DNA from: a virus
Virus record (IMG/VR): IMGVR_UViG_3300010357_001710
Length of the DNA: 55,857 nucleotides
Reading direction: 5' to 3' (one strand)
Under the pieces are notes generated by a model. That model saw nothing but the letters and a program-made list of their open reading frames with translations, ran no database searches and was not told the origin of the DNA. Position numbers and translations under genes: made by a program. Shown piece after piece: positions 4,500 to 48,566 of the stretch. Within the stretch, counting starts at the first letter, position 1; every line of letters begins with the position of its first letter.

Positions 4500-4955
4500 A
4501 TGCCGGTAGACAAAAGACTTTCTTTATTGACAGGGGATAGAAAACTAACTTTTAATATTTATAATTCTTCTACTGATGCTCTTATTGTTTCTTATAATTT
4601 TCCAACCCCACAAGTATTTTTTCCAGATATAGAAGAGACAAAGTTTTCTTATATAGACGGAGGATTTACTAAGAGACAAAAAGTTTGTGGTTATTACAAC
4701 AAGGTAAAAATAGAATATTTTCCGTCAATTCTTACAAGTACTCAGCTAACTAATTTTAATGCTATAAAAGAATATTCAAGACAAAGTGGAGTTTATATTA
4801 AATTGAAACCTTCTACAGATGTTTCTTTTACTGACATAATTAATATTCAAAAATTAGAGTTTACTCAGGAAGATAATAATAACAATATTGTTGGGGTAAA
4901 GATGGAAGTAGATTTTATAACATTTCAAACTGACTCAACTTATTTAGTTCTTTAG
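4500..4955 (+). CDS. Tail/baseplate-associated protein, function unknown
   Basis: ATG at 4500 is preceded by GGAGG (4491-4495). The track start at 4434 lies inside the upstream gene. Confidence 0.5.
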   Translation: MPVDKRLSLLTGDRKLTFNIYNSSTDALIVSYNFPTPQVFFPDIEETKFSYIDGGFTKRQKVCGYYNKVKIEYFPSILTSTQLTNFNAIKEYSRQSGVYIKLKPSTDVSFTDIINIQKLEFTQEDNNNNIVGVKMEVDFITFQTDSTYLVL

Positions 4956-4968
4956 GAGGTGAAAAATA

Positions 4969-6579
4969 ATGCGAGTATATGTAAATTTAGTAGATAAATT
5001 TGGAAATCCACTTTCTAACGACTATGTTACTACAGCTATTTTGAAGTTATCGTCAGATAATTCTACAGTAACAGACATTTTTACAAAAGTTGGAAAATTT
5101 TGTCTATATTTTGAAATAGCTGATTCATCAAAAATAGACTGTTATGTAGTTATTAATGGAAACACAATAATTAGTGATTATAATATCTTAGGTGTAAGTC
5201 ATACTCATGTTAGTAATGAACTTGACTTATCTAGTATAATAAATGTTGCTAATGGAATTGCAGGACTTGATTCAAATGGAAAAGTAGCTACTGCTCAATT
5301 GCCAGATTCTATATTAGGAGCATTGAAATATCAAGGAGTTTGGAATGCTTCTGGTGGGACTTATCCAGCTTCTCCACAAGACGGATATTACTGGATAATA
5401 TCTGTTGCAGGAACTTTAGGTGGAGTTGATTATGAAATAGGTGATTGGTTAACTTATAATTCTTCAACTTGGTCTAAAATAGATAATAGTGACAAAGTTA
5501 GTTCTGTAAATGGAAAAACGGGTGTTGTTACTATAACTTTAGGAGATATAGGTGCAGAAGGAGCTATTTCAAAATCTACTGGATATCTTACATGGACTGG
5601 AAGTGCTTGGTCATGGAAAAATGAAACTTATAGTTTAAGTAGTCATAATCATAGCGGAGTTTATCAACCTATAGATTCTGATTTAAGTGCAATTGCAGCA
5701 CTATCTGTAAGCGGAGTACCTTATAAATCCAGTCTTGGAGTTTGGTCTATGAGTATTTACTTATTAGAGCTGGCTGAGTTTTTAAGCACAGCAGCTACTG
5801 ATGGATTCTTAAAATATAGTCATTTGTCTGGATTATTTTCAATAGATACTACTACTTATTTATCTTCTATTGCTGCAAATTCTATTTCAAATACTATGTT
5901 AAATGATATGGCTCAATCTACAATTAAAGGAAGAGCATCAGGCGCCGGAACTGGAGACCCAACTGATTTAACAGCTGCACAGGTGAGAACAATTATTAAT
6001 GTTGCTGATGGTGCAAATGCGTATGTTCACCCTAACCATTCAGGAGACGTAACTTCTGTTGGAGATGGAGCAACGACTATTGCAAGCAATGCAGTGACAA
6101 ATACTAAGTTAGCAGATATGGCTGCAAATACTATTAAAGGCAATAACACAGGTTCAGCTGCAGACCCAAAGGATTTGACTGTTGCAGAAGTTTTGTCGCT
6201 GTTGGGTGCTATAACAGCAGCATCAACAGACACTCTTACAAATAAAACATTGACAGCACCAAAATTTGCGAATAGTGGATATTTAGCAGATACAAACGGT
6301 AATGAGCTATTGAAGTTTATAGTGGTAGCTTCGGCAGTTAATGAGGTTTCATTAAAAAACAACACTACAGGTAATGCACCAGAAGTACAAGCAACAGGTG
6401 GAGATACTAATATAAATCTTAAACTTGTTGCAAAAGGAACTGGACAAATAGAAAATGGTTCACCATTCAAGAATTATTTATGCACATCTTTTCCTACAGG
6501 TGTTGAGGGAATGAAAGTTTATAGAACAGATTTGCATGGAGAATTTACTTACAATGGAACTTCTTGGGTAGAGGTATAA
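4969..6579 (+). CDS. Tail fibre / receptor-binding protein
   Basis: 536 aa, Gly/Thr/Ser/Asn-rich. Contains the motif 'GIAGLDSNGKV..QLP' and a tandem internal repeat ('NTMLNDMAQSTIKGRASGAGTGDPTDLTAAQV' / 'NTKLADMAANTIKGNNTGSAADPKDLTVAEV'). The C-terminal part is visibly richer in G+C than the genome. Confidence 0.75.
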   Translation: MRVYVNLVDKFGNPLSNDYVTTAILKLSSDNSTVTDIFTKVGKFCLYFEIADSSKIDCYVVINGNTIISDYNILGVSHTHVSNELDLSSIINVANGIAGLDSNGKVATAQLPDSILGALKYQGVWNASGGTYPASPQDGYYWIISVAGTLGGVDYEIGDWLTYNSSTWSKIDNSDKVSSVNGKTGVVTITLGDIGAEGAISKSTGYLTWTGSAWSWKNETYSLSSHNHSGVYQPIDSDLSAIAALSVSGVPYKSSLGVWSMSIYLLELAEFLSTAATDGFLKYSHLSGLFSIDTTTYLSSIAANSISNTMLNDMAQSTIKGRASGAGTGDPTDLTAAQVRTIINVADGANAYVHPNHSGDVTSVGDGATTIASNAVTNTKLADMAANTIKGNNTGSAADPKDLTVAEVLSLLGAITAASTDTLTNKTLTAPKFANSGYLADTNGNELLKFIVVASAVNEVSLKNNTTGNAPEVQATGGDTNINLKLVAKGTGQIENGSPFKNYLCTSFPTGVEGMKVYRTDLHGEFTYNGTSWVEV

Positions 6580-14848: not shown

Positions 14849-14867
14849 ATAAATCTTCCGCCTTTCC

Positions 14868-15062: not shown

Positions 15063-15113
15063 TTGTTTCCGCCTTTCTGAAAGGATTTTATCCATCCTTT
15101 CCTTTATGATTAG

Positions 15114-19905: not shown

Positions 19906-20748
19906 TTAAATATTTTCTAATACAAAATTGACTAATTTATCTTGGCACAATTCTTTCTTGTTTTCTTCTATGTATTTTATAAAACCTTCGTGCAGTATTA
20001 AAGAAGTGTTGCTTTCTGGTAACTTAAATTCTTTTATGCTATCATCATTAGCCATAGTATCTAGCAATTTAAAATCAGATTCATAAACATGTAATGACCC
20101 AACATTGTGGTATAGTTCTCCAAGAATCAATTCTGGGTACCAATACTTTAAAACTTTGAAAGCTTCTTTTTGAACTAATATAAAAAATGGAATGTCATAA
20201 GTCATTCCTTTTATTAAGTCTTGAGACCGCATATTTGAAATAAGAATAAGTTTATTGTTTCTTATGAATAATTGTAAATACATTGTGCAAACAAAATCTT
20301 TGTTCTCAAAGAATTGATGAGAAGAATTATTGAAATGCATAATAGCTTGTCTTGAATTCTTGTCTTTTATTAAAGAATTAATAGCCCAAAAATATTGCGT
20401 ATTTCCAAAAATATTTTCTTCTTTAAATATTAAAGCTCCATAATAACTATGAATAGGTTGCAATTTTAGCCAAAATTTTGAATATTTAGAAATAAACTCT
20501 AAAGAAGTAGAACCACCAAAATACCAGCACGTTTCTGCACAAAGATATTTTAAAATGTTTGGTCTGCTATTCATAGAAAAAAATTCTTCTGTAGTACGTC
20601 TTATACACAAATTTGCATTTATAGTTTCAATTACTTTGAAATCTCTTATTTTTACTTCGTTAAATTCCAACTCTTGAAAATAATTATGATTATTGAAACA
20701 CAGCAATAAGTTTGAGTAAAGAGAAGCAAAAGTATTACTTTCAATCAT
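19906..20748 (-). CDS. ThyA-fold pyrimidine C5 hydroxymethylase/methylase, most like T4 gp42 dCMP hydroxymethylase
   Basis: 'DFVCTMYLQLFIRNNKLILISNMRSQDLIKGMTYDIPFF' has the catalytic Cys and RS.D. It carries Asp in 'TYD' where ThyA has Asn in 'PFNIASY'. 'NVGSLHVYESDF' resembles gp42 'NVGSLHVYSRHF' (recalled from memory). Confidence 0.7.
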   Translation of the reverse strand: MIESNTFASLYSNLLLCFNNHNYFQELEFNEVKIRDFKVIETINANLCIRRTTEEFFSMNSRPNILKYLCAETCWYFGGSTSLEFISKYSKFWLKLQPIHSYYGALIFKEENIFGNTQYFWAINSLIKDKNSRQAIMHFNNSSHQFFENKDFVCTMYLQLFIRNNKLILISNMRSQDLIKGMTYDIPFFILVQKEAFKVLKYWYPELILGELYHNVGSLHVYESDFKLLDTMANDDSIKEFKLPESNTSLILHEGFIKYIEENKKELCQDKLVNFVLENI

Positions 20749-20755
20749 ACTTATT

Positions 20756-21355
20756 CTATCCTATTAATCCAGAATATTGTGATTTCATTATGTAAATTTC
20801 TATTAGAGATACAACTTCTTCTTTACTTGTTTTATTCAAATCAAAAAGCATAATTTTTTTAGACAAGCTTTTAGTTAAATTGATAATTGAAAACTCTTCA
20901 TGTTCTTGTATCATTTCTAAATTGTAATCTCTTATCAATTCTTGTTCTTCTGTTGGCTTAATACTTTTAAACAAACAAGTTAAATCATACAATTTATCAT
21001 AAGCATTCAAAGTGTCTATAAATTTATGTAATAAATTAAAGTAGTCTTTTTTCAAAGAATCAGAAAGTTGCGTATGATTTATATAATTTGTGAAATAAAA
21101 AAAGCAATCTACTAAAGTTCTATCACTTAAGTAAACTGTGTGCTTTTTTGATTCAAAAATTTTACTCAATCTGTCTTTAAATATTTTTTCTTGAACTTCT
21201 AAATTCATTGATGGGTTTTTTCTAAGTTCATTTATATCTTTAATCATTTTTCGTATCGGCTCTTCAATAAGAACAAAATCTTTATTTTTTTCTATAAGAG
21301 CTCTCATAATAGTAGATTTTCCACTATGTGATGCACCAGAGAATCCTATAATCAT
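20756..21355 (-). CDS. P-loop (deoxy)nucleoside-monophosphate kinase (putative)
   Basis: 'IIGFSGASHSGKST' P-loop at the extreme N-terminus and 'LSDRTLVD'. Sandwiched between the hydroxymethylase and the dCMP deaminase. Confidence 0.5.
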   Translation of the reverse strand: MIIGFSGASHSGKSTIMRALIEKNKDFVLIEEPIRKMIKDINELRKNPSMNLEVQEKIFKDRLSKIFESKKHTVYLSDRTLVDCFFYFTNYINHTQLSDSLKKDYFNLLHKFIDTLNAYDKLYDLTCLFKSIKPTEEQELIRDYNLEMIQEHEEFSIINLTKSLSKKIMLFDLNKTSKEEVVSLIEIYIMKSQYSGLIG

Positions 21356-21786
21356 ACTCCCTCCTGTTTGTATACTAGTATTCCACTATTTCTAAACATT
21401 TTTGTTGTTTCATTTCCATGATAGTCTTGTAAAAAATGAACTTCAGAAATTTCTAGATTTATTAATAGTCTTGCGCATTCTATACATGGAAGTGTAGTAC
21501 AATACAAAAAAGAACCTTTCAATGAAATCCCATGTTTTGCAGCTTGAACAATAGCGTTTTGCTCCGCGTGTACCGCATGACATAAATGTAAATCTTTTCC
21601 AGATTCTTCTCTAACGCAATTTTCACAATGCTTAAAGCCAATAGGAACTCCGTTATAACCAGTTGCCACTATGTTGTCATCTTTTACAAAAACTGCTCCT
21701 ACATTTCTTCTTAAGCAAGTAGAACGCTGAGCAACAGTCATAGCTATTTTCATAAAATATTGTTCTTTACTCATTCGAAAACGCAT
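21352..21786 (-). CDS. dCMP deaminase (zinc-dependent cytidine/deoxycytidylate deaminase family)
   Basis: 'HAEQNAI' and 'PCIECARLL' zinc-binding motifs. 144 aa. Confidence 0.9.
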   Translation of the reverse strand: MRFRMSKEQYFMKIAMTVAQRSTCLRRNVGAVFVKDDNIVATGYNGVPIGFKHCENCVREESGKDLHLCHAVHAEQNAIVQAAKHGISLKGSFLYCTTLPCIECARLLINLEISEVHFLQDYHGNETTKMFRNSGILVYKQEGV

Positions 21787-22183
21787 AATTTTTCTCCATG
21801 TATTCTTTAAATTCTACTAGAGAATTTATTTTTACTACTGGTAAATTTTCTCTTAAAGAAAGATTGTCAATAAGCGTAAATTCTTTTTTGTTTGTTTTAG
21901 CTCTAACATCGTTTAAAATAAAAATTTTAGAATAATGATGTGCTAAATTAAATCCCAACAAAGTTGGAATATATACTACATCATTAATGCTTCTAAAAAA
22001 TTCATCGTTGCCAACATGAACTATTTTAAAATAATTTTTTAAAATATTTGCAACTCTTACCGGAAAAGAATTCTCTAATTTGCTTAAAGAAATAGTACTT
22101 TTAGAATCTAATACAAGAGCATAGCCTTCACATTTTTCTGCGTTTGAAAGATTTTTTTCTATATCTTTTGTTATGCTTTCCAT
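21767..22183 (-). CDS. Hypothetical protein
   Basis: 138-aa ORF with AAGGAGGA RBS, preceded by a GCAATAATA motif. No motif recognised. Confidence 0.5.
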   Translation of the reverse strand: MESITKDIEKNLSNAEKCEGYALVLDSKSTISLSKLENSFPVRVANILKNYFKIVHVGNDEFFRSINDVVYIPTLLGFNLAHHYSKIFILNDVRAKTNKKEFTLIDNLSLRENLPVVKINSLVEFKEYMEKNYAFSNE

Positions 22184-22235
22184 ATAAATCCTCCTTTATT
22201 TATATTATTGCTAAAAGCTATGCTTTTTGTATTAT

Positions 22236-22676
22236 TTAATTTGTACTACCAAAACCACCAGAACCACGTTGACTTTCTTTATCAAATAACTCAGATTCAT
22301 GTGTTTGTAATAACTCAACTGAATTAAAATCTAATAGTATGAATTGAGCTATTTTATCACCAGCTCTTATTTCAGCAACTTTATTACTATAGTTTATAAG
22401 ATGAAGATGTATTTCTCCTTGATAGTCTGAATCAATTACACAAGCGCCTATAATAAGTTTTTTCTTTGTGGAAACCCCACTCTTATTGAATGAAATTAAA
22501 ACTTTTCCTTCTGGAAGATTCATTTTTATCCCAGAGGGAATAAGAATGTCTTCACCAGACATTAAAGCTACATCAATAAAATCATTTGGCACAAAGAAAT
22601 CAATACCTGCTGAACCAGTTGTTGAAACAAGTGGACTCTTAACATCTCTAACTTTTGCAAAATTAATTTTTTCCAT
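22236..22676 (-). CDS. dut: dUTP diphosphatase (trimeric dUTPase family)
   Basis: 'GSAGIDF', 'GACVIDSDYQGEI', 'RGSGGFGSTN'. ATG 22676 has an AAGGAG RBS. The track start at 22697 is a GTG within that RBS. Confidence 0.9.
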   Translation of the reverse strand: MEKINFAKVRDVKSPLVSTTGSAGIDFFVPNDFIDVALMSGEDILIPSGIKMNLPEGKVLISFNKSGVSTKKKLIIGACVIDSDYQGEIHLHLINYSNKVAEIRAGDKIAQFILLDFNSVELLQTHESELFDKESQRGSGGFGSTN

Positions 22677-23346: not shown

Positions 23347-23643
23347 TTAATTTTGTTCTTGAATTACTCCAATAATATCTTCATAACGAACAATTAAATA
23401 TTCAGCGTCTTCAAAAGAATTAATCTTAATTCCTGTACCTGAAAACTTAGAAATAATTATTTCCATTTCAGGTTGAAGATTAAGTTTTGAAATTTCTTCT
23501 CCAGAACCAATTCTTTCTACAATGCCAATTTGAGTTTTTTCTCTAGAAACATCTGGAATAAACAAACCACTTTTAGTTTTTTCTTCCTCAATTTTCAATT
23601 TAACTAAGACACGGTCTTCTACAGGGATTACGATTTTTGTCAT
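23347..23643 (-). CDS. Co-chaperonin GroES/Cpn10 homologue
   Basis: 98 aa. 'IPVEDRVLVKLKIEEEKTKSGLFIPDVSREKTQIGIVERIGSG' matches the GroES pattern, including the mobile-loop region. Confidence 0.7.
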   Translation of the reverse strand: MTKIVIPVEDRVLVKLKIEEEKTKSGLFIPDVSREKTQIGIVERIGSGEEISKLNLQPEMEIIISKFSGTGIKINSFEDAEYLIVRYEDIIGVIQEQN

Positions 23644-27127: not shown

Positions 27128-27159
27128 ATTTATTCACCTTTCTTTATTTATCTATTATT

Positions 27160-28578
27160 TCAATTGCATAAAGAATTTGTCTTATATTTGTGGTTTTCTA
27201 TTGAATGAATTTTCTTTTTAAAAGAACCGCGCATTATTTCTGCTTTTTTTACTTCTGACACGAAAGTTTTTAATTCTTCTTTTGAAAGGTCTAAAGCAAC
27301 TTCATCAAAATGAACCCATTCATGGTCTTTATATTTCACATGCTTTTCAATCATTATTGCTCCAGCTGCTATAGCCATCATAGAACCAATACTTCCTAAG
27401 TCATGTCCAGAATAACCCGGTACAATATTTTTCATTCTACTTTTTAATGCAAATAAGATATTTATAACTCCAGTATTTATTTCTTCTAAAGGCGTTGGAT
27501 AACTAGAAAGAGTATGCAAAATAAATAAAAATCTTTTTTCTGAATAGAACTTATCAACAATTTCACTTATGTATTCTTCTCCTGTTGCACCAGTACTAAT
27601 AATTATGTCTTTGTGATAATTTTTGCTAACATACTCAATAAAATTTTTATGATTTGAAACTGTAGAAGGAATTTTAACTAGCTCAAGATTAAAAGTAGAG
27701 TTCATTAAATTAAAAGAAAATTTGTCTAAGATTGTACTAAACCACAAAATATTTTCTTTTTTGCAGAATGAGTCAAATTTCTTTAAATCATCTACTGTCA
27801 ATTCAACCCCACGTCTATAATCTCCATAAGTTTTTCCAAACTTAGATTCATATGGGCGTTGCAATTCTTCTTTAGTATAAAATAAATTCACATCTCTTTT
27901 TTGAATTTTAACTAAATCAGCTCCCTGTTCTGTAGCTAATTTTGCTATTTTACATAGTAAATCAATGTCTCCTAAGTGGTTATTTGTAATCTCTGCTACT
28001 ATTATTACTTCATTATTATTTACTTTCTCATCAATTAATGATTTTATACTTTTTTCTTTTTTAGTATAAAATTCAATATTTTGTTCTTTTATGAATTTAT
28101 TAAATTCTTCTTTTTGTTTTTCAAAATAGACTTTATTGAAGTCTTCAGTATTTATGCTTAATTTATTTGTTGAAGAATCAAAATTATATCCATCAATGTA
28201 TAGTCTCTCGCATCCTAATCCTTTTGCTATCTTTATAGAAAAAATAGCTGGATTTAAAATTAATGATGAGTCTATTAAATCTTCTTCTTCTAAAATTATT
28301 ATATTAGAAGAACTAATTTTATGTAATTTTTTAAAATCTTCTATTAAATCATATGGTATTAAATTTATGATGTTGAAATCTATATCTTTAATACTATATT
28401 TAGACTTAACAATATTAATTATAGTATTTGTTCTAAGGTTTCTATTTAAAGAGTTGTTCACTGTTATACAAAAAGAATTCTGAGCTAGTTCATGTTGTAA
28501 TTCTCCATTTCCAATTATATGGCACTCAGTTGGAAATTGACAATGAATATCTTTTATCTTCTTGCAAATATTTTCCAT
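27160..28578 (-). CDS. Fusion protein: N-terminal GT42/DUF115-like (CMP-sugar transferase-like) domain plus a NeuB-type nonulosonic acid synthase TIM barrel
   Basis: C-terminal ~280 aa: 'VAEITNNHLGDIDLLCKIAKLATEQGADLVKIQKR', 'LWFSTILD', 'VKIPS', 'IIISTGAT', 'LHTLSSYPTP', 'GYSGHDLG..AAGAIMIEKHV'. N-terminus: 'CHIIGNGELQ', 'CITVNN', 'KGLGCERLYIDGYNF', recalling CstII. No SAF domain at the C-terminus. Confidence 0.8.
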   Translation of the reverse strand: MENICKKIKDIHCQFPTECHIIGNGELQHELAQNSFCITVNNSLNRNLRTNTIINIVKSKYSIKDIDFNIINLIPYDLIEDFKKLHKISSSNIIILEEEDLIDSSLILNPAIFSIKIAKGLGCERLYIDGYNFDSSTNKLSINTEDFNKVYFEKQKEEFNKFIKEQNIEFYTKKEKSIKSLIDEKVNNNEVIIVAEITNNHLGDIDLLCKIAKLATEQGADLVKIQKRDVNLFYTKEELQRPYESKFGKTYGDYRRGVELTVDDLKKFDSFCKKENILWFSTILDKFSFNLMNSTFNLELVKIPSTVSNHKNFIEYVSKNYHKDIIISTGATGEEYISEIVDKFYSEKRFLFILHTLSSYPTPLEEINTGVINILFALKSRMKNIVPGYSGHDLGSIGSMMAIAAGAIMIEKHVKYKDHEWVHFDEVALDLSKEELKTFVSEVKKAEIMRGSFKKKIHSIENHKYKTNSLCN

Positions 28579-29200
28579 AGTATTTTTCTCCGTCTATTAA
28601 AACTTTACAATTAAATTGAATTGCTAAATTTATTCCAGCTAAAATATCCCAAGAACATGCTCTAGGATTATAATAATTTTTGAAACTTTTTGTTATAACA
28701 GAAAAAATATTATAAGTTGCACATCCAGTTATTCTATATTCTTCATAATTTTTAGACTCAGTAATAATTTCTTGTAAAGTCATAGAAGAAGATAAAGCAA
28801 CTATTCTACTTTTTTGTTTTGTAGAAATTGTTTTTTCGTCTAATGATGAAAGTTTTAAATTTAATTTTGGAAAATACAATAAAGAATATTCGTGGCTTTC
28901 ATTAAAATAAATTGCTAAACTGAACCCGAAAATAGGTATATTGTTTGCAAAATTTTCTGTACCGTCAATAGGGTCAATTACAATAGTATAAAGGGCTCTA
29001 TTGTTTTTTGTTATTTCTTCTTCTGATATAAATGAAAAATCATCAAAAAAGTGTTTACAAAGTACTTTAATTTTTTTACTTATAAGTTTGTCTATGTCTG
29101 TTACTATTGATTTGTCTTCTTTAATAAAAAAATTTGAAGGTTTTCTTAAATTTTCATCAATAGTTAAAATAACGCTTTGTTCAAAACTATCATAGCGCAT
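28526..29200 (-). CDS. Inositol-monophosphatase-fold sugar-phosphate/nucleotide phosphatase
   Basis: 'IVTDIDK', 'ISEEE', 'VIDPIDGTENF', 'SWDILAG'. ATG 29200 has a GAGAGGTGGA RBS and overlaps the upstream stop (ATGcgctaTGA). Confidence 0.75.
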   Translation of the reverse strand: MRYDSFEQSVILTIDENLRKPSNFFIKEDKSIVTDIDKLISKKIKVLCKHFFDDFSFISEEEITKNNRALYTIVIDPIDGTENFANNIPIFGFSLAIYFNESHEYSLLYFPKLNLKLSSLDEKTISTKQKSRIVALSSSMTLQEIITESKNYEEYRITGCATYNIFSVITKSFKNYYNPRACSWDILAGINLAIQFNCKVLIDGEKYYGKYLQEDKRYSLSISN

Positions 29201-29924
29201 TTGAAAATCCACCTCTCATTTTTTCAACATACATACTTCTTGCTAAAAGAAAATCTTCAATAGTGTCTACATCAATAGAGTCTATAACTCTATTTTCTAA
29301 AAAGTATGGATTTTCACCGATGAAATATCTTCTTTCTAAAAGTTTTTCAAATTTTCCACCATATAGTGCGTTGTTAACTTCAAACACTGGAGAAATGTTT
29401 TGTGTATATTGATGATTCTCATTTGCACAATAATTTACTGTTTTGCCATGGTACCAGAAAAAACCTCTTTTCATAACTCCTGAAATTATAGAATCATAAG
29501 AACCACAAATAACTTCAGAATAATATTTATAAATTGCATCTCTGTATAAAGATTCATCAAACATAGGAGAAGTTGGATAAGTTATTAGTAAGTGTGAAAC
29601 TTTTCTTTTCTTTTTTATTTCTGTAAAAAGATTGTGTAAAAGATCACTAAATTTGATAGAATCATCTGTAAATAGAGTAGTATCTCTAATAATTTGCGTG
29701 CAATTATTTTCATTTAAAGAAAAATCAAAGCTTGTAAGAATATTACTTTTTGGAATACCAGAGTTTATAATTTGATTCATCTTTATTTCTATAAGAGATT
29801 TTTCTCCATAAAATTGTCTTGTGTTTTTTTCTCTTACTCGTGAAGAATTAGACCTCGCTAAAACTAAAATGTAAATTTTTTCTTTTTTACAAATTTTTTG
29901 TACATATTGATAATTAAATATCAT
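29190..29924 (-). CDS. Acylneuraminate/KDO-type cytidylyltransferase (CMP-sugar synthetase, NeuA/KdsB family)
   Basis: N-terminus 'YILVLARSNSSRVREKN' (the ..ARxxS.R...KN signature). ~244 aa, the typical size. Confidence 0.6.
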   Translation of the reverse strand: MIFNYQYVQKICKKEKIYILVLARSNSSRVREKNTRQFYGEKSLIEIKMNQIINSGIPKSNILTSFDFSLNENNCTQIIRDTTLFTDDSIKFSDLLHNLFTEIKKKRKVSHLLITYPTSPMFDESLYRDAIYKYYSEVICGSYDSIISGVMKRGFFWYHGKTVNYCANENHQYTQNISPVFEVNNALYGGKFEKLLERRYFIGENPYFLENRVIDSIDVDTIEDFLLARSMYVEKMRGGFSNAL

Positions 29925-37055: not shown

Positions 37056-37088
37056 AATTTTCCGCCTTTCTTTTTAGAGGAAGAACGC

Positions 37089-37367
37089 TTACGCGTTTTC
37101 CTCCATTGCTGCTTGAAATGCTTCCTCAAAGTAATCTTCTGAGCAGTTATAATAGTCGCTTGAATAAAACTTAAGTAAATTTTCTTTTGTTCCTGTTACA
37201 TCAATGATTGAAATTCCTCTGTCAAAATCTGCGTCGATAATTTTGTGGTCTAGTCCAAATTCTTGTGCTGCCATAAGAAATTCAACCATTCTTTTTTCAT
37301 TCTCAAGTAGCACGTCCAAGCTCATCGTTACTTCTGTGTTTTTAGTTTTTCTTCTTAAGTTTTCCAT
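37089..37367 (-). CDS. Small acidic early protein, paralog 1 of 4
   Basis: 92 aa behind early cassette E2. Shares 'GL.hK' and 'I.V.G.KENL..FY' cores with 37656-37919, 38039-38284 and 38303-38584. Confidence 0.6.
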   Translation of the reverse strand: MENLRRKTKNTEVTMSLDVLLENEKRMVEFLMAAQEFGLDHKIIDADFDRGISIIDVTGTKENLLKFYSSDYYNCSEDYFEEAFQAAMEENA

Positions 37368-37413
37368 GGGTTCCGCCTTTCTCGGAAGTTTATTGCCTTC
37401 CGTTTACATGATT

Positions 37414-37655: not shown

Positions 37656-37919
37656 TTAGTTTGATTCTAACAAAATTTCTTTGAAGCTAACAGTATCTTC
37701 TTCTAAAATTATTTGCTCATAATAAAAGTTTTCCAAATTTTCTTCTGGCCCGAATAACGTAACAGTTATCACAGCATTTGAGCTTCCATCTCGCTTTGGA
37801 ATTTCTTCTACCTCATGAATTTTGTAAGTCAGATTGTAATCCAAAGTAGCAGACTTAAGAATGTTTAGAACCCCGATGCTAGATGTTTCTGGTGTTTCCA
37901 AGGTAAGTTTTTTTTTCAT
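37656..37919 (-). CDS. Small acidic early protein, paralog 2 of 4
   Basis: 87 aa behind early cassette E3. 'YNLTYKIHE' and 'VITVTLFGPEENLENFY'. Confidence 0.6.
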   Translation of the reverse strand: MKKKLTLETPETSSIGVLNILKSATLDYNLTYKIHEVEEIPKRDGSSNAVITVTLFGPEENLENFYYEQIILEEDTVSFKEILLESN

Positions 37920-37965
37920 TTTTTCCGCCTTTCTTGGAAGAGTTTATCCCTTCCTTTATGAATTC

Positions 37966-38038: not shown

Positions 38039-38284
38039 CTAATCTTCTAATAATTCTGAAAAATCTCCTGTGTAATCTGGCTCAAATTCTTCAATATAAA
38101 ATACTTTTAAGTCGCTTTCAAAACCATAAAATGTAATGTTTGGGACAAACAACATTGATTCAGAATAACTATCGTTTTCAAATCGAAAAGTCAAGTTATA
38201 TTCTTTTCCAACATTTATTAGAAAGTTTATTAGCTCGTCATTCGTGTAAGCAACGTCTAAGTTTATTTTTTTAATCGGCTTCAT
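38039..38284 (-). CDS. Small acidic early protein, paralog 3 of 4
   Basis: 81 aa. 'YNLTFRFEN' and 'NITFYGFESDLKVFY'. No own cassette. It follows paralog 4 after a short hairpin (GCAGGG/CCCTGC). Confidence 0.55.
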   Translation of the reverse strand: MKPIKKINLDVAYTNDELINFLINVGKEYNLTFRFENDSYSESMLFVPNITFYGFESDLKVFYIEEFEPDYTGDFSELLED

Positions 38285-38302: not shown

Positions 38303-38584
38303 TTAACCCTGCTCCTCCATTTCTACTTCAAAAAGTTTTTCGAATTCTACTTCAGTATCTATATTTTCAAATAAATTTTCTTCAGCGTAGAAGTTGAAAA
38401 ACCCGCGTAAGTTTTCTTTTTTCCCATAAAAAGATATCACAGAAGTCATTGTGGTAAAGTCAATTTCTTCTAATGTGTACCGTAACCCAAAACCCTTATT
38501 TGCTTCAATTAATAAGTGTCCAAGATCCCCTTCGATGTCGTCCGATAAGATTTCGATTTCGATTTTCCCGATTTTCTTTTCCAT
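38303..38584 (-). CDS. Small acidic early protein, paralog 4 of 4
   Basis: 93 aa behind early cassette E4. 'FGLRYTLEE' and 'VISFYGKKENLRGFFNFY'. Confidence 0.6.
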   Translation of the reverse strand: MEKKIGKIEIEILSDDIEGDLGHLLIEANKGFGLRYTLEEIDFTTMTSVISFYGKKENLRGFFNFYAEENLFENIDTEVEFEKLFEVEMEEQG

Positions 38585-38628
38585 AGTTTTCCGCCTTTCT
38601 GGAAAGTATTCCTTTCCTTTATGAATTA

Positions 38629-40429: not shown

Positions 40430-40729
40430 TCAATCTCTCCAAGCAATAGTGTAAAAATATTTTTCAGCATGAACTATTCTTACTTTTTCATTTTTCAAAA
40501 CTATAAGACTATTATCTACACAATAATTACGTATTGTATACTCGAGCTTAAATGGAAATTTTTCCAATATCTTATTTAAGTTTTCTAAGAATATTTCTTG
40601 GTTAAATTTAGTCTCATATGCTATACCTTGAAAACATTCTGGCAAATGAAAAGCAATCTTTTTTTCTATTCCAAAATTCTCAGGATTAGTAATACTTTCT
40701 AAGTTATTTACTTCTACTATGAGTATCAT
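40430..40729 (-). CDS. Hypothetical protein
   Basis: 99-aa ORF with AGGAGGAA RBS and a class-II promoter upstream. Confidence 0.45.
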   Translation of the reverse strand: MILIVEVNNLESITNPENFGIEKKIAFHLPECFQGIAYETKFNQEIFLENLNKILEKFPFKLEYTIRNYCVDNSLIVLKNEKVRIVHAEKYFYTIAWRD

Positions 40730-40752
40730 AATTTCCTCCTATTTTTATATTT

Positions 40753-40782
40753 ATTATTGTGAAATTTTATTGTTTTTGTAAA
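40753..40782 (-). promoter_or_regulatory. Class-II promoter candidate (TTTACA-N18-AATAAT)
   Basis: Minus strand: TTTACAaaaacaataaaatttcaCAATAATAAAT. The -35 overlaps the T-tract of the preceding terminator. Confidence 0.4.
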
Positions 40783-40815
40783 AAGAAAATGCAATAGAAG
40801 CTTTGCAACTATTGC
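40781..40815 (-). terminator. Rho-independent terminator closing the tRNA/structured-RNA unit
   Basis: Minus strand: TGCAATAG-ttgcaaagctt-CTATTGCA followed by TTTTCTTTT. Confidence 0.65.
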
Positions 40816-41020
40816 ATTTCTTTCTTCAGTGCGAAAGGCGAATAACTCACTGAAGATTTAACAAAGAGAAAGGCGAATAACCTTTGTTAAAAGAATAATT
40901 CTGTTTGGAGGGAAAGCATTTAACTTTCCATTGCCCCCACTTTTCAAGCTGCAACTTCGCGCAAAAAGTTTTTAAAAGCTTTACTAGGCAAGAGTGTCCT
41001 ACACTTAGACGACTCCAAAA
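40816..41020 (-). ncRNA. Candidate structured non-coding RNA downstream of tRNA-Glu (three hairpins, two with identical 14-nt loops)
   Basis: Hairpins at 40907-40938, 40858-40890 (TTAACAAAG/CTTTGTTAA) and 40824-40855 (CTTCAGTG/CACTGAAG). The loops of the last two share GTTATTCGCCTTTC (minus strand). Locally high G+C. The only ORF has atypical composition. Confidence 0.45.
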
Positions 41021-41091
41021 GCACTCGGAGAGGATCGAACTCTCGATGACGGACTGAAAATCCATTGCCTTTACCACTTGGCTACGAGCGC
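41021..41091 (-). tRNA. tRNA-Glu: tRNA-Glu (anticodon UUC)
   Basis: Hand-folded cloverleaf. Acceptor GCGCTCG/CGAGTGC, D arm GCC-AAGTGGTAAA-GGC, anticodon stem ATGGA/TCCGT with loop TTTTCAG, T arm GAGAG-TTCGATC-CTCTC. CCA is not encoded. Confidence 0.8.
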
Positions 41092-41192
41092 GTACCTGAG
41101 ACTGAGAGGGGTTAAGTCCCAGGATTTTTATACGGCTATTATCTTTATATTGATTTCTCATTATATTTTCCCCTCTCCTTCCATAGAATAAT

Positions 41193-41222
41193 ATTATTGT
41201 GCTATTTTGATTGAATTGTCCA
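41193..41222 (-). promoter_or_regulatory. Class-II promoter candidate (TGGACA-N18-AATAAT) for the tRNA/structured-RNA unit
   Basis: Minus strand: TGGACAattcaatcaaaatagcaCAATAATATT. Located at the 3' end of the 41194-41439 gene and directed into the RNA locus. Confidence 0.45.
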
Positions 41223-41439
41223 AAAGATTTTTGTTTTTTACTATATCAATCGGAATGAAAACAAAACATCCACCAGTCTCATTTTTCCAAATAGCAATAC
41301 GAGATTTTGGAATCCATTGTGGTTTTTTAAATTTCAATAATACTGAAATAGAAGTTTCTTTTAAAATAAAGGAGCTAAATTTTTTATAGTGTATAGAATC
41401 TGAATAGTTTCCTTGTACAAATTCTCCAACCATTCTCAT
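41194..41439 (-). CDS. Hypothetical protein
   Basis: 81-aa ORF with AAGGAG RBS. Confidence 0.45.
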   Translation of the reverse strand: MRMVGEFVQGNYSDSIHYKKFSSFILKETSISVLLKFKKPQWIPKSRIAIWKNETGGCFVFIPIDIVKNKNLLDNSIKIAQ

Positions 41440-41459: not shown

Positions 41460-41660
41460 CTAATCGATAGACGATTTAAGCTCTTTTATCTTATCTGTAG
41501 CAATCTTTCTTGCCTCTCCAGCAGCCATACGAACTTCCTGAAGATTTTTTCGAATGCTAATACCTGCTTTGACATTTTCATTTTCAAATCTTCCAATGTC
41601 ACTTTTAATAACTCCTACTAGTGCCTCCAATTTTACTACCAGCTCTTTCAATTCTTCCAT
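41460..41660 (-). CDS. Histone H1-like Hc1 N-terminal-domain-like protein (putative DNA-binding)
   Basis: 66 aa. 'FENENVKAGISIRKNLQEVRMAAGEARKIATDKIK' parallels chlamydial Hc1 'AEKGNKAAAQRVRTESIKLEKIAKVYRKESIK' (recalled from memory). Confidence 0.45.
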   Translation of the reverse strand: MEELKELVVKLEALVGVIKSDIGRFENENVKAGISIRKNLQEVRMAAGEARKIATDKIKELKSSID

Positions 41661-43048: not shown

Positions 43049-43070
43049 ATTTTCCGCCTTTCTTTATTTT

Positions 43071-43508: not shown

Positions 43509-43563
43509 TTGGTTTCCGCCTTTCGTTTTTTAGGAGAGGAACCATTCCTTCCTTTATGAATTG

Positions 43564-43591
43564 ATTATACCATATGCACAAGAAATGTACA
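43564..43591 (-). promoter_or_regulatory. Early promoter E5 (TGTACA-N16-TGgTATAAT) with structured leader
   Basis: Minus strand: TTTTTTCCTGTACAtttcttgtgcataTGGTATAAT. Divergent from the plus-strand promoter at 43622-43651. Confidence 0.6.
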
Positions 43592-44284: not shown

Positions 44285-44944
44285 ATGAAAATAGTAGAAC
44301 AAAAATGCGAATTAATTACTAAAATAAAAGAAGAAGATATTTGTAAAATGATAGAGTATTGTGGTAGAGTTGCGTATTTAAGTTTTGGTAGAATTTCAAA
44401 AGAATCTTACAAAGATTTTATAAATATGCTTTTACAAAAACAGCATCTTTCTGTGTTTGAGCATATTTCTTTTACTTTTAAAATTACGACAGATAGAGGA
44501 ATTTCTCACGAATTAGTTAGACATAGAATAGCAAGTTTTACTCAAGAATCTACTAGGTTTTGCAATTATAACAATAAAGATATAGAATTCATATCTCCAT
44601 TTACTTTTACTGAAGGGAAAGAAGAACAAGTAGAGTTATTTTTTCAAATGATAAAACAAAGTGAATTTGTTTACAAAGAACTTATAAACTCTGGAATGTC
44701 TCCGCAATGGTCAAGAAGTGTTTTACCAAATTCATTAAAGACAGAACTTTTTATGACAGCTAATTTGCGCCAAATTTTTCATATAGTAAAATTACGCGTT
44801 TCAAAACAAGCTCACCCACAAATGCAGCATTTAATTCGTGAAATGGTTTCTCAATTAAAAGCATATTACCCAATAATTTTTAACTCAGAATACTTTAATA
44901 ACGAAATACTTTGTGGGAGGGAACAAAATGAATTTTTATCTTAA
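44285..44944 (+). CDS. thyX: Flavin-dependent thymidylate synthase ThyX
   Basis: ThyX signature 'VRHRIASFTQESTRF' (RHRxxSxxxxS). 219 aa. Confidence 0.9.
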   Translation: MKIVEQKCELITKIKEEDICKMIEYCGRVAYLSFGRISKESYKDFINMLLQKQHLSVFEHISFTFKITTDRGISHELVRHRIASFTQESTRFCNYNNKDIEFISPFTFTEGKEEQVELFFQMIKQSEFVYKELINSGMSPQWSRSVLPNSLKTELFMTANLRQIFHIVKLRVSKQAHPQMQHLIREMVSQLKAYYPIIFNSEYFNNEILCGREQNEFLS

Positions 44945-45782: not shown

Positions 45783-47250
45783 TTCAGTAAGTTCTCTTGG
45801 CTGGGCTTTTAAAAATAGAATAATAGAAGGTAAGCCTTATACATTAAAAGGTAGAGAGTTTCTTCGTGAAATCTATTCTCATTTTATAAATGAAAAAGTT
45901 AAAAAAGAAGTTGTAATAATGAAAGGTGCGCAGCTTGGAGTTTCTGAGCTTGCTGTGAATCTTGGTTTGTATGTAGTAGACAACATAGGTGACGTTATGT
46001 ATCTTCTTCCAGGGGGTGGAGATGCTAGTAATTTTTCATCTGGGAGATTCAACCCAGCTATAGAAAATTCTGAAAGACTTTCTAATTTGTTCAATGATGT
46101 TTCAAATATAGGGCACAAAAGAACGGGTGAAAGAAATTTATTTGTTCGTGGAGCAAATTCTGAATCTGGACTTCGCTCAACTCCAGTAGATTTTCTTGTC
46201 ATAGATGAATATTCTTTAATGCCAGAACGTTCAGTAGAACTTGCATTAGATAGATTAGATGCAAGTGAGTATAAGTGGATTTTGAAATTATCTACACCTT
46301 TGCTTCCTGAAATGAACATACACTCAGCATTTTTACAATCAGACCAAAGAGAATTTTTTGTAAAATGCTCAAAATGCGGTTTAGAGCAACCAGTAGATTT
46401 TTTTGAAAATATATTTTTAAACCATGAAAAAGAATCTTATTTTTATGGTTGCAAAAAATGTAAAACAGAGCTTAATAGAAATTTTGGACAGTGGAAAGCT
46501 TTAGCTAAGTCTAAAGTTCCGGGTTATCATATTTCTCAAACGTTAAGTCCTACTGTTTCTGCAGACGATTTAATGGATAAATTTGAAAAAACAAAATTTT
46601 CAGCGACAGTAAAAGAAAATTTTTACAATAGCAAGTTAGGATTGCCTTATGTTTGTGAGGGTGACAAACTTTTACATGAAGACTTAGAAGCTGCTAAATT
46701 TGAAGAAGTTAAATTACCTCAAGTTTGTGGTATTGACGTTGGAAGTTATTTACACGTTATTTTTTACGATTCTTTTGGAAATATTTGCAAAGTTCAAAAG
46801 TATAGAGACTTTGCTGAAGTAGAAAGAATAATTTTACAGTCTGGAATTACTGTTGCTGTTATTGATGCGATGCCAGAAACTAGAAAAGCTAGAGAATTGC
46901 AAGAGTCTTTAAAAAAGAATTGTAAAGTTTTTCTATGTCGCTATGTAGATAATTCAAAAGCAGAACTTAACTTTACAGAAAATGAAGACTCTCAATTTGT
47001 TACTGCAGATAGAACTTCTATTTGCGATGCTATTGTTGGAAGATATAAGACAAAGACTATTAAAATTCCTGGTACTGTAGATGAAGAATTTTGTAATCAA
47101 TTAAAAGCACCAATGAGAACAATTGTTGATGGTGTTCCTAGATATGTTGAAGTTGGTGCTGACCATTATTTCCATGCTAACGTATATGCAGAAATTGCTT
47201 ATTCTTATTACAAAGACAAATTAAGAACACCAAGTTTGAGGAGATTATGA
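45697..47250 (+). CDS. Terminase large subunit, GpA (lambda-like) family
   Basis: 'VVIMKGAQLGVSELAVN' (GpA-type P-loop region), 'DFLVIDEYS' Walker B, and a zinc ribbon 'CSKCGLEQ...CKKCKTEL'. The start is uncertain and overlaps the upstream ORF by 86 nt. Confidence 0.8.
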   Translation: MKKSKMNSLETLSSENLLNHIKNASKLIDSVSSLGWAFKNRIIEGKPYTLKGREFLREIYSHFINEKVKKEVVIMKGAQLGVSELAVNLGLYVVDNIGDVMYLLPGGGDASNFSSGRFNPAIENSERLSNLFNDVSNIGHKRTGERNLFVRGANSESGLRSTPVDFLVIDEYSLMPERSVELALDRLDASEYKWILKLSTPLLPEMNIHSAFLQSDQREFFVKCSKCGLEQPVDFFENIFLNHEKESYFYGCKKCKTELNRNFGQWKALAKSKVPGYHISQTLSPTVSADDLMDKFEKTKFSATVKENFYNSKLGLPYVCEGDKLLHEDLEAAKFEEVKLPQVCGIDVGSYLHVIFYDSFGNICKVQKYRDFAEVERIILQSGITVAVIDAMPETRKARELQESLKKNCKVFLCRYVDNSKAELNFTENEDSQFVTADRTSICDAIVGRYKTKTIKIPGTVDEEFCNQLKAPMRTIVDGVPRYVEVGADHYFHANVYAEIAYSYYKDKLRTPSLRRL

Positions 47251-48566
47251 GAATAAAAAATGCTCATATTAAAAAAGAACAAGTAAGTAATGTAGAAGAG
47301 CTATTTAATTCTTCTAAAAATATGCTTGGCATTATGAGAGCATTGCCTATCTTAGAAGAAAACAAAGATACACACTTTAAATTGTATATAGATGTCTTAG
47401 CAAATTATCTTCAATTCTCTGTACTTCGCGGATTGAAACAATATTACAAAGACAAAAATAATTATGAAGCTATTAAATTAATTAATCAAAAACTTAAGTA
47501 CTCTGATTTACTTAGAGAAAAAGACATAAAAATCTCAGCATGTATAATTGCAAAAAATGAAGAAGACTATATTGAAGAATGCTTAAATTCAATAAAAAAT
47601 CAAGTAGACGAAATTATAGTTGTAGATACTGGCTCTTCTGATTCTACAAAAGAAATAGCGTTTAAGTATACGGAAAAAGTTTATTCTTTTATAGAAGAAC
47701 CATTTAATTTCTCAAATGCAAGAAGAGAATCTGTGAAGTATGCTTCTAATGAGTGGATTTTTATAATAGATGCAGATGAAGTTTTAGTAGAGAATTATGT
47801 AAATGCTTCTTTAAGAAAAAGTATTTACAATGCTGTAAATAAAAGTTTTGACTCATTATGTTTTAAAATGATGCACTTACCTGATAATAAGCTTGGTAAT
47901 TTTTCTAATACAAGAATAATAAGAAAAGACTATATTTTATTTGAGCTACCAGTTCACAACCAAATTTTTGGACATTTAATTTCTGTGGGAGATTCAAATT
48001 TTTATTTAAAACATTATGGTTATACTGAAAAAAGAAGAAAAAAAAGTGGTCGTCATATTCAAACAATGAATTCTCTTATCGATGTAATAAAAGAAAAAGA
48101 ATCTAAAAATGAAGTAAGTGACTATTCGTATTTCTACTCTCTATATCAACTTGGAGTATCTAATTTAGAAAAAATAAAATTAAGTGGTGTTTTAAATTAT
48201 ACAGAAGAACAATGTTTTGAAAATTTAAACATTTTTGCAAAAGCATACAATGGAAAAAGTTTATTTCCTGAACATATTAGTTTACAAATTTTAGATTATA
48301 GTTTAAGATTGTTGACAGCTCTAGGAGATAATGAATCTATCTTAAAATTAAAAGAAGAAATAGAAAGTTACTCTCTTTACAGTCTTGACTGTGATTTTTT
48401 CTTATTTTTTGCTTTTATAGAATTAAATAAAATTGAAGAAGCAAAAATAATTGGAGAAAGATTTCTTAGTAAAATTGATAATTTAGAGCAATCAGAACTT
48501 ATTCACTATCATATAGATAAAAAAGAAGTAATTCAAAAAATATTAAAAGAGGTAGTATATGCTTAG
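47247..48566 (+). CDS. Family 2 glycosyltransferase with helical-repeat (TPR-like) C-terminal domain
   Basis: 'ISACIIAKNEEDYIEECLNSIKNQVDEIIVVDTGSSDSTKEIA' and the 'IIDADE' DxD motif. Confidence 0.75.
   Translation: MRIKNAHIKKEQVSNVEELFNSSKNMLGIMRALPILEENKDTHFKLYIDVLANYLQFSVLRGLKQYYKDKNNYEAIKLINQKLKYSDLLREKDIKISACIIAKNEEDYIEECLNSIKNQVDEIIVVDTGSSDSTKEIAFKYTEKVYSFIEEPFNFSNARRESVKYASNEWIFIIDADEVLVENYVNASLRKSIYNAVNKSFDSLCFKMMHLPDNKLGNFSNTRIIRKDYILFELPVHNQIFGHLISVGDSNFYLKHYGYTEKRRKKSGRHIQTMNSLIDVIKEKESKNEVSDYSYFYSLYQLGVSNLEKIKLSGVLNYTEEQCFENLNIFAKAYNGKSLFPEHISLQILDYSLRLLTALGDNESILKLKEEIESYSLYSLDCDFFLFFAFIELNKIEEAKIIGERFLSKIDNLEQSELIHYHIDKKEVIQKILKEVVYA

Follow-up and report, generated by a model that had tools for sequence, protein, structure and literature searches.

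The minus strand of IMG/VR virus record IMGVR_UViG_3300010357_001710 (the window, i.e. the whole stretch of 55,857 nucleotides (nt) analysed here) carries, 3' of a tRNA-Glu gene, about 240 nt without a conserved open reading frame (ORF), which end in a strong hairpin and a U-tract and show the same 14-nt sequence, GUUAUUCGCCUUUC, in two hairpin loops. These loops are complementary to GAAAGGCGGA, an unusual Shine-Dalgarno (SD) motif standing before eight early genes of the same phage, and this complementarity is real, specific and far beyond chance. We propose that the region encodes a trans-acting antisense small RNA (sRNA), obtained from the 3' trailer of the tRNA, which would mask the private SD of the early mRNAs; on sequence and modelled pairing, we place about as much trust as doubt in this reading. 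An earlier note on the window had suggested either such an anti-SD sRNA or a protein sponge. Our computations bear out the anti-SD pairing and speak against the sponge, since the loops carry the complement of the motif and not a copy of it.

The structural argument rests on the two last hairpins, C and D (Table 1). A repeat finder returned a single direct repeat in the region, a 14-mer in two copies 35 nt apart (40833-40846 and 40868-40881), which reads GAAAGGCGAATAAC on the plus strand and GUUAUUCGCCUUUC in the RNA. Perfect inverted repeats, TTTAACAAAG/CTTTGTTAAA (10 bp) and TCTTCAGTG/CACTGAAGA (9 bp), enclose the copies, and in the RNA the stem arms read UUUAACAAAG/CUUUGUUAAA and UCUUCAGUG/CACUGAAGA. 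As the earlier note had already seen, the two stems have almost no sequence in common, although both are perfect, while the loops agree at 14/14 positions. Identical loops on unrelated perfect stems argue for a selected RNA structure, and no structural argument at hand is stronger: under an origin by duplication, each stem position would have been replaced with compensation and the loop frozen. Within the full-length sRNA both loops are predicted to be open, with a mean probability of being unpaired of 0.83 in each and opening costs of 0.5 kcal/mol for C and 1.2 kcal/mol for D. A covariance model of the two hairpins weakly matches the antisense of the leader at 38599 (17.8 bits, E ~4), with 13/15 identities around the loop, which hints at an origin of C and D by inverted duplication of an early leader.

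The three hairpins that had been noted in about 200 nt of this region were recovered, and a further structured 5' domain (nt 1-116) was found. Its first seven nt, UUUGGAG, directly follow the tRNA discriminator and pair with CUCCAAA at nt 110-116 in a 7-bp closing helix. It contains hairpin B (40929-40911, GGAAAGU/GCUUUCC, extended by GGGG/CCUC), and its interior (nt 8-90) folds ambiguously, separate folds disagreeing with each other. The proposal that the first hairpin exposes CUUUCCCUCC did not hold, since this sequence is buried as the 3' arm of a hairpin stem, with a predicted probability of being unpaired of 0.01. Three further interpretations of the hairpins were rejected: a mimic of CRISPR repeats, as differing stems with the same loops are the reverse of what would be expected; a tandem terminator, as neither C nor D is followed by a U-tract; and a decoy ribosome-binding site (RBS) on the plus strand, as no start codon follows the motif there.

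GAAAGGCGGA occurs in eight exact copies in the window, all on the minus strand. With one mismatch allowed, 11 sites are found against 0.79 expected, a number reached by 0/100 shuffles, and the only near-matches on the plus strand of the whole window are the two loops themselves. All eight sites are in fact copies of the full 11-mer GAAAGGCGGAA, with differing flanks, so that the unusual SD motif seen earlier before eight early genes including the sigma factor gene is exact in every case; its distance from the ATG, previously given as 5-9 nt, was measured as 3-7 nt. Five of the eight sites are preceded by a 5'-proximal hairpin and, before it, by an early promoter of highly stereotyped build (T-tract, CCTGTACA, 17-18 nt, TGnTATAAT); three are operon-internal. 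The motif keeps a fixed 3-7 nt from the ATG, whereas its distance from the -10 box is variable (30-40 nt), and it is therefore an element of the RBS and not of the promoter. The other genes (about 70) have ordinary GGAGG, AGGAG or GAAAGGAG sites according to a crude survey of about 85 start sites. Consequently, the host anti-SD is presumably canonical, and GGCGG would be a deliberate one-base departure from GAAAGGAGG. Judged by its sequence, GAAAGGCGGA is a private A-to-C variant of this host-type SD.

Apart from the sigma factor, the motif-led genes encode small proteins of unknown function. Four paralogous acidic early proteins of 81-93 aa with the signature G-x-[KE]-[EK]-N-L...FY are encoded at 38303-38584, 38039-38284, 37656-37919 and 37089-37367, and three of the four genes are motif-led. 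No family match was found for them, nor homologues outside the phage lineage among 5.8 billion proteins, and they are probably host-takeover proteins. The early promoters with minus-strand -10 boxes at 43572, 38637, 37974, 37422 and 15122 are near-identical over about 40 nt (TTTTTTCCTGTACAT...TGnTATAAT), and in the 5'-proximal hairpin after each of these five the 5' arm is SD-like (GGAAAGG) and the 3' arm anti-SD-like (CUUUCC).

The sRNA loop pairs with GAAAGGCGGA through UUCGCCUUUC over 10 consecutive positions, eight Watson-Crick pairs followed by a G-U and then an A-U pair, with the loop G facing the diagnostic C of the motif. When the loop 14-mer was slid over all 20-nt windows of the minus strand, the mean was -2.7 kcal/mol (standard deviation 2.1). 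The motif sites score -14.5 to -16.7 kcal/mol and make up eight of the top nine on this strand; the remaining one is the RBS of the gene at 27127-26774 (GAAAGGUGAAUAA), the second-best predicted duplex in the window. Ten of 80 start regions reach -14 kcal/mol or better, namely the eight motif sites and the RBSs of 27127 and 24607. Mononucleotide-shuffled loops reached this value at a mean of 0.5 start regions, with 1/1000 reaching 10, and random 14-mers of the same strand at a mean of 0.04, with 0/1000 reaching 10, so that the pairing scheme of the earlier note stands beyond both controls. Opening of the target sites is predicted to cost 0.5-2.9 kcal/mol, and the loop duplex is 2-5 kcal/mol stronger than that of a 16S-like tail (about -12 kcal/mol) on the same sites. 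An accessible seed is thus computed to find accessible targets beyond chance, as expected of a trans-acting, SD-repressing sRNA. A G-to-C version of the loop core would read UUCCCCUUUC, and a C-to-G version of the SD motif GAAAGGGGGAA.

The setting of the sRNA is that of a tRNA 3' trailer: it starts at 41019, directly after the discriminator U41020, ends at the operon terminator and has no promoter of its own, a consensus scan having found no minus-strand promoter-like site between tRNA-Glu and terminator. ARAGORN and Rfam agree on the tRNA-Glu, whose gene has no encoded CCA, and the promoter-like site and the 9-bp hairpin 5' of the tRNA that had been reported before were both recovered. The TTGACA-like/ACAATAAT architecture of this promoter-like site is also found before the genes at 40761, 41692, 33064, 24883 and 43643 (plus strand). 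The terminator, likewise described before, is seen in the folds as a hairpin with 18-nt arms (83% complementary) and a U-tract. A simple terminator scan did not call this hairpin at 40826-40780, because its 11-nt loop exceeds 8 nt. In the leader, GAGAGGGG (41177-41170) can pair without mismatch with the hairpin loop CCCCUCUC (41111-41104), which might give a long-range helix or a pseudoknot; the leader fold alone is not significant (z = -1.1). The same GAGAGGGG is part of an SD-like GGAAGGAGAGGGG, which is followed by an ATG.

A diverged strain of the phage (L056, Logan SRR12022141), with a ligase 87% identical to that of the window, contains the whole unit. The only sizeable ORF of the unit, 104 aa at 41161-40847, crosses the tRNA-Glu in its frame, and in L056 only 16 codons of it are left after a 1-nt insertion. 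It was therefore rejected as a coding gene, leaving no credible ORF in the unit, as had been claimed. Over 4.8 kb, L056 is 89.6% identical to the window, with 64/72 identical positions in the tRNA, about 80% identity in the downstream gene and 236/240 in the sRNA. Three of the four sRNA substitutions fall in consensus pairs and keep the pairing (G-U to G-C, A-U to G-U, U-A to U-G); the remaining one is located in the 5' part whose fold is ambiguous. Hairpin C is identical in L056 and in JGI contig Ga0116178_10039245 (L271), hairpin D has one change in L056 (stem U-A to U-G), and loops and motif are unchanged in both contigs. Two A>G changes in the L056 leader hairpin turn U-A pairs into U-G pairs. 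Loops and stem pairing are thus conserved in L056, but the covariation in relatives that the earlier note had asked for is not seen, as none of the four substitutions is compensatory. The early promoters of L056 differ, reading TTAAAAT(T)AGTATATAAT or, at the third early promoter, TGTATTATAAT, and the 5' hairpins differ too; despite these changes, GAAAGGCGGAA is kept at three early leaders.

Beyond these strains, the searches gave few relatives of what is a very sparsely sampled lineage. In an Rfam cmscan of 40700-41300 (all 4227 families of Rfam 15, at gathering thresholds and at E <= 10) only the tRNA was significant, and when the locus was compared by blastn with 50,697 phage records, all matches were to tRNAs. 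The two-loop DNA pattern returned only collagen-like coding repeats and unrelated tandem repeats from IMG/VR, JGI metagenome contigs and GTDB genomes; for JGI this negative is weak, because the scan did not return L271, which carries the exact pattern. Retrieval anchored on ligase and TerL yielded L056 as the one real relative, besides 80 distant TerL loci, in which the sRNA had no match by blastn, nhmmer or covariance model; 19 of the 80 were scanned with ARAGORN and contained no tRNA. A profile of the four paralogous early proteins retrieved only a third strain, in contigs below 800 nt (L151/L152). The pattern TATAAT...GAAAGGCGGAA gave scattered single matches in IMG/VR and no phage with the same system, and a look-up of the identical 66-aa neighbour protein led only to identical copies or to contigs that break before the sRNA. 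Independent assemblies of the phage from four other samples (L270, L272, L273 and L274) end within the 81-aa gene that adjoins the unit on its upstream side (41439-41194), or shortly behind this gene, which suggests strain-level heterogeneity or a recombination boundary and fits the mosaic profile of identity to L056 discussed below.

Table 1. Elements of the tRNA/sRNA unit and SD motif sites in the window. Energies are for the predicted duplex with the sRNA loop.
Feature	Position	Strand	Basis or remark
Promoter-like site TGGACA-18 nt-(CAC)AATAAT, before the tRNA/sRNA unit	41193..41222	-	consensus scan, 10/12 matches
5' leader, ~100 nt, with 9-bp hairpin (41123-41095) just 5' of the tRNA	41092..41192	-	inverted repeat I8
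tRNA-Glu, anticodon UUC, discriminator U41020	41020..41091	-	ARAGORN; Rfam RF00005, 59.1 bits
sRNA 5' domain, nt 1-116, with hairpin B	40904..41019	-	minimum free energy and consensus folds
Hairpin C, 10-11 bp stem UUUAACAAAG(G), 13-nt loop with GUUAUUCGCCUUUC, core 40881-40868	40857..40891	-	perfect inverted repeat I5
Hairpin D, 9-bp stem UCUUCAGUG, 16-nt loop with GUUAUUCGCCUUUC, core 40846-40833	40823..40856	-	perfect inverted repeat I7, direct repeat D1
Terminator-like hairpin (AAAGAAAUGCAAUAG...CUAUUGCAUUUUCUUU), then U-tract UUUUCUUUUU	40780..40822	-	folds; inverted repeat I2
SD motif GAAAGGCGGAA, 5 nt before ATG of 126-aa early gene (43508-43128), after early promoter and 5' hairpin	43514..43524	-	-15.4 kcal/mol
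SD motif before 67-aa gene (43048-42845)	43052..43062	-	-14.9 kcal/mol
SD motif before 93-aa early gene (38584-38303), after early promoter and 5' hairpin	38589..38599	-	-16.7 kcal/mol, best predicted duplex
SD motif before 87-aa early gene (37919-37656), after early promoter and 5' hairpin	37923..37933	-	-14.6 kcal/mol
SD motif before 92-aa early gene (37367-37089), after early promoter and 5' hairpin	37371..37381	-	-14.6 kcal/mol
SD motif before 185-aa gene (37055-36498)	37060..37070	-	kept in third-strain fragments L151/L152
SD motif before 64-aa gene (15062-14868), after early promoter and 5' hairpin	15067..15077	-	-16.2 kcal/mol
SD motif before phage sigma factor gene (14848-14306)	14856..14866	-	PHROG 351, E = 3e-15; -14.5 kcal/mol
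Possible ninth target GAAAGGUGAAUAAA, RBS of 117-aa gene 27127-26774	27129..27142	-	-16.5 kcal/mol, 13 pairs including one G-U

We infer transcription, processing, pairing in vivo, repression and timing of the sRNA as follows. Promoter-like site, leader, tRNA-Glu, the RNA of about 240 nt and terminator would be transcribed as a single precursor. A tRNA without CCA is, by an established rule, cut by RNase Z-type activity at the discriminator, and since the tRNA-Glu gene encodes no CCA, we propose that RNase Z-type 3' processing cuts after the discriminator and frees the sRNA. The freed molecule would have its first seven nt locked in a helix and the terminator hairpin as its 3' end, both stabilising features. 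Its two open loops would then pair with GAAAGGCGGA at eight early cistrons, including that of the sigma factor. The A-to-C change is expected to be cheap for the ribosome, as GAAAGG still pairs (about -12 kcal/mol predicted), whereas the loop G would read the motif C, binding more tightly than the 16S tail, and would meet a central G:A mismatch at ordinary GGAGG sites. Loop binding would mask the RBS, and the untranslated mRNA would probably decay. The outcome would be a shut-off or damping of early protein synthesis, with negative feedback on the sigma factor.

Several points weigh against this proposal, whose support is computational only. The loop is an imperfect complement of the motif, with a G-U pair at position 9, and the perfect 14-nt target GAAAGGCGAAUAAC is absent from the phage; the 10-bp contacts are also short, although typical of loop-mediated antisense RNAs. 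Only one diverged homologue of the sRNA is available (L056), and it has no compensatory double change. Moreover, identity between the window and L056 is mosaic, a nearby block of 1.4 kb being 99-100% identical, and the 98% identity of the sRNA could stem from recent exchange rather than from selection; because of this mosaic profile the conservation is suggestive and not decisive. At two other early leaders L056 has GAAAGGCGTTT and GAAAGGTAGAT, and at one early leader the third strain (L151 150-170 / L152 226-246) has GAAAGGGGGAA, a change of C to G that restores a G-U-containing match to a 16S tail of canonical sequence and would abolish the pairing with the loop of the sRNA; the gene that follows in this strain keeps GAAAGGCGGAA. 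Finally, the promoter class is no proof that the sRNA is made after its targets.

The evidence also has to be read against explanations in which the loops have another function or none. We consider it unlikely that there is no regulator at all, the unit being just the 3' trailer of a tRNA, with one hairpin in duplicate and a terminator, GAAAGGCGGAA having spread by duplication of leader cassettes and the complementarity being an SD/anti-SD-like by-product. Four of the early genes are paralogous, so some leaders are of common descent; however, the 11-mer has stayed invariant although the paralogues have diverged to about 30% amino-acid identity and have unlike leader hairpins, and four motif-led genes lie outside this four-member family. 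Anti-SD-like pyrimidine strings are common in an AT-rich genome, the nearest relatives of the loop at two mismatches are complements of ordinary RBSs, one of the 1000 shuffled loops also reached 10 start regions, and the high identity to L056 is possibly the result of mosaic exchange. The pairing statistics also count against this reading, as do the central C:G match, which distinguishes the motif from canonical SDs and is exactly mirrored in the loop, and the stems of C and D, which differ at nearly every position yet pair perfectly around loops identical at 14/14 positions. Somewhat less probable still is that the pairing exists but follows another logic, with the plentiful early leaders titrating the sRNA away from a true host target of perfect match, or with the sRNA protecting or activating early mRNAs or guiding an RNase. 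The absence of the perfect complement GAAAGGCGAAUAAC from the phage leaves room for a host target, and short duplexes with two loops per RNA are compatible with several outcomes. However, the pairing covers the SD itself, which is already predicted to be open (0.5-2.9 kcal/mol), so that activation by unmasking would be unnecessary and occlusion is the simplest outcome. Such a logic would alter, not void, the account of the sRNA given here.

Identical loops on different stems also mark protein-binding hairpins, as in coat-protein operators, boxB and RsmZ/CsrB. It is nevertheless improbable that hairpins C and D serve as an operator, decoy or assembly site whose loops are read by a phage or host protein without SD pairing. 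The identical loops, and likewise a structured 5' domain without a predicted target, would fit, but a sponge should copy the mRNA motif where these loops carry its complement, they have no GGA core of the CsrA/Rsm type, and the statistical link to eight start sites would be left unexplained. Among about 48 products scanned (PHROGs or Pfam), moreover, no RegA/RegB-like, CsrA-like or other RNA-binding protein family was recognisable. We hold it for very improbable that the motif acts at the level of DNA, with a regulator binding double-stranded GAAAGGCG(G/A)A in either orientation, blocking early transcription and binding twice in the tRNA/sRNA unit. On duplex DNA, loops and SD motif are indeed the same 8-10-bp word in opposite orientation, and 5/8 sites lie 30-40 bp downstream of early -10 boxes. 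The other three, however, are not promoter-proximal and still lie 3-7 nt from an ATG; spacing is tight to the ATG and loose to the promoter, L056 changed its promoters and kept the motif at the RBS, and a DNA site needs no perfect inverted repeats of unrelated sequence around it. Hardly any weight is given to a private orthogonal SD/anti-SD code with the sRNA as an adaptor in trans. There, the loops would mimic the 16S 3' tail (CCUCCUUUC to CGCCUUUC) with a change of specificity matching that from GGAGG to GGCGG. With the private SD bound by the loops, the SD-/anti-SD-like 5' domain would attach to the 30S subunit; alternatively, the two loops might bridge the two motif-led cistrons present on each of three early operons. 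In both versions, a subset of ribosomes would be partitioned to or from early mRNAs. Against this, folding predicts that the SD-like stretches of this domain are paired.

As a masking antisense RNA, the sRNA can be compared with several known systems. The c4 RNA is cut from a longer precursor by RNase P, a tRNA-processing enzyme. In phages P1 and P7, its loop sequences pair around the ant RBS and block translation (PMC12197685). The likeness lies in the mode of working and not in homology: both are phage-encoded structured antisense RNAs with loops complementary to RBS sites, here two loops against eight RBSs. c4 RNA, however, controls the single icd/ant operon in the immunity of temperate phages and shares a transcript with this target, which lies downstream of it, whereas the candidate targets here are eight early cistrons dispersed from 43.5 kb to 14.8 kb in an apparently virulent phage, with the sRNA placed after a real tRNA. 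No match to the Rfam families C4 or CI was obtained at 40700-41300 even at E <= 10. RegB and RegA of phage T4 represent the one well-studied post-transcriptional shut-off of early genes, which uses proteins. RegB recognises the SD-containing 11-nt early-mRNA consensus GG*AGRAYARAA and inactivates early translation, with autoregulation of an early gene among its effects (PMC3014915). In both phages a common extended SD would serve as an address on early mRNAs that is read by a phage-made trans factor, but RegB is a non-homologous protein RNase which needs ribosomal protein S1 and cleaves the SD, whereas here a candidate RNA would mask it. T4 also produces RNA C and RNA D, small stable RNAs of unknown function that are co-transcribed with phage tRNAs and freed by tRNA processing (PMC3014915); there is no sequence or Rfam relationship to them, and no target complementarity is known for them, whereas an explicit target set is predicted here.

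Among bacterial RNAs, CsrB/RsmZ-type RNAs show GGA loops, the same motif as in their target mRNAs, and titrate CsrA/RsmA (PMC4894983). They likewise have several hairpins with an identical short loop motif, but the loops found here, GUUAUUCGCCUUUC, lack GGA and show the mRNA motif in complement. E. coli 3'ETS-leuZ is a base-pairing RNA made from the 3' trailer of a tRNA precursor and ending at the operon terminator, and it acts as an Hfq-dependent sponge of the sRNAs RyhB and RybB. The predicted partners here are mRNA RBSs instead, and the RNA is about four times longer with a structured domain of its own. The sRNA belongs to no known RNA family and, as far as its sequence indicates, would work like loop-presenting antisense RNAs in what appears to be a new, regulon-wide design; the literature searches gave no account of a phage RNA that serves a whole regulon through a private SD/anti-SD pairing.

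The window represents an approximately complete phage genome (about 55.9 kb, 28.5% G+C). It is identical in sequence to ENA contig ERZ27257414 k141_1351317, and parts are also present in JGI sample 3300009781; the phage is contained in SRR12022141 and in the runs behind ERZ27257414 and ERZ795044 as well. Structural genes occupy both genome ends on the plus strand, and a minus-strand block of 33 kb encodes DNA polymerase, primase/helicase, SSB, Sak4, exonuclease, ThyA/ThyX, dCMP deaminase, dUTPase, an ATP-dependent ligase and the sigma factor, so that a full replication module is present. The phage looks virulent, because neither integrase nor repressor was detected among the annotated genes. 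No close cultured relative was found, TerL being at most 25% identical to that of any isolate. NeuB-family, inositol-monophosphatase-like and cytidylyltransferase-like genes are present, as is a glycosyltransferase gene between TerL and portal (27160-29924, 47247-48566, 19906-22676, 44285-44944). The phage has both ThyA-like and ThyX genes together with those for dCMP deaminase and dUTPase, and L056 has an extra gene with an HMUDK_hel domain after the ligase (4806-5834). This gene set suggests that sugar or base modifications are made to the DNA or the virion. A 66-aa histone H1-like protein with an Hc1 domain (Pfam PF07432, 23.7 bits at a cut-off of 23.5) is encoded at 41460-41660, just upstream of the tRNA unit, and an Hc1 gene is also found on the ligase-related contig L059; a GroES/Cpn10 homologue is encoded at 23347-23643. 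Between 31230 and 31790, a gene-poor region of about 550 nt is dense with short repeats in both orientations, comprising at least 12 AAGTAC/GTACTTT and 4-5 ATTGGTATACA units, and resembles an iteron array, which could be a replication origin or an array of regulator-binding sites. In the five early promoters, the -35 region (CCTGTACA) also contains the GTAC core of these repeats.

For virulent phages, turning off the early genes in due time is a central problem. If the proposed mechanism is true, a lytic phage could tag an entire temporal class of mRNAs by a private SD that departs from the usual one in a single base, and could read this tag with a small RNA that a tRNA precursor supplies for free. 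tRNA-linked phage RNAs could then be regulators, and the motif and its loop would constitute a natural orthogonal SD/anti-SD pair and, for bacteria of low GC content, a compact and portable switch of translation. With one RNA, one 10-nt seed, obvious choices of compensatory mutations and eight identical targets, the prediction lends itself unusually well to testing.

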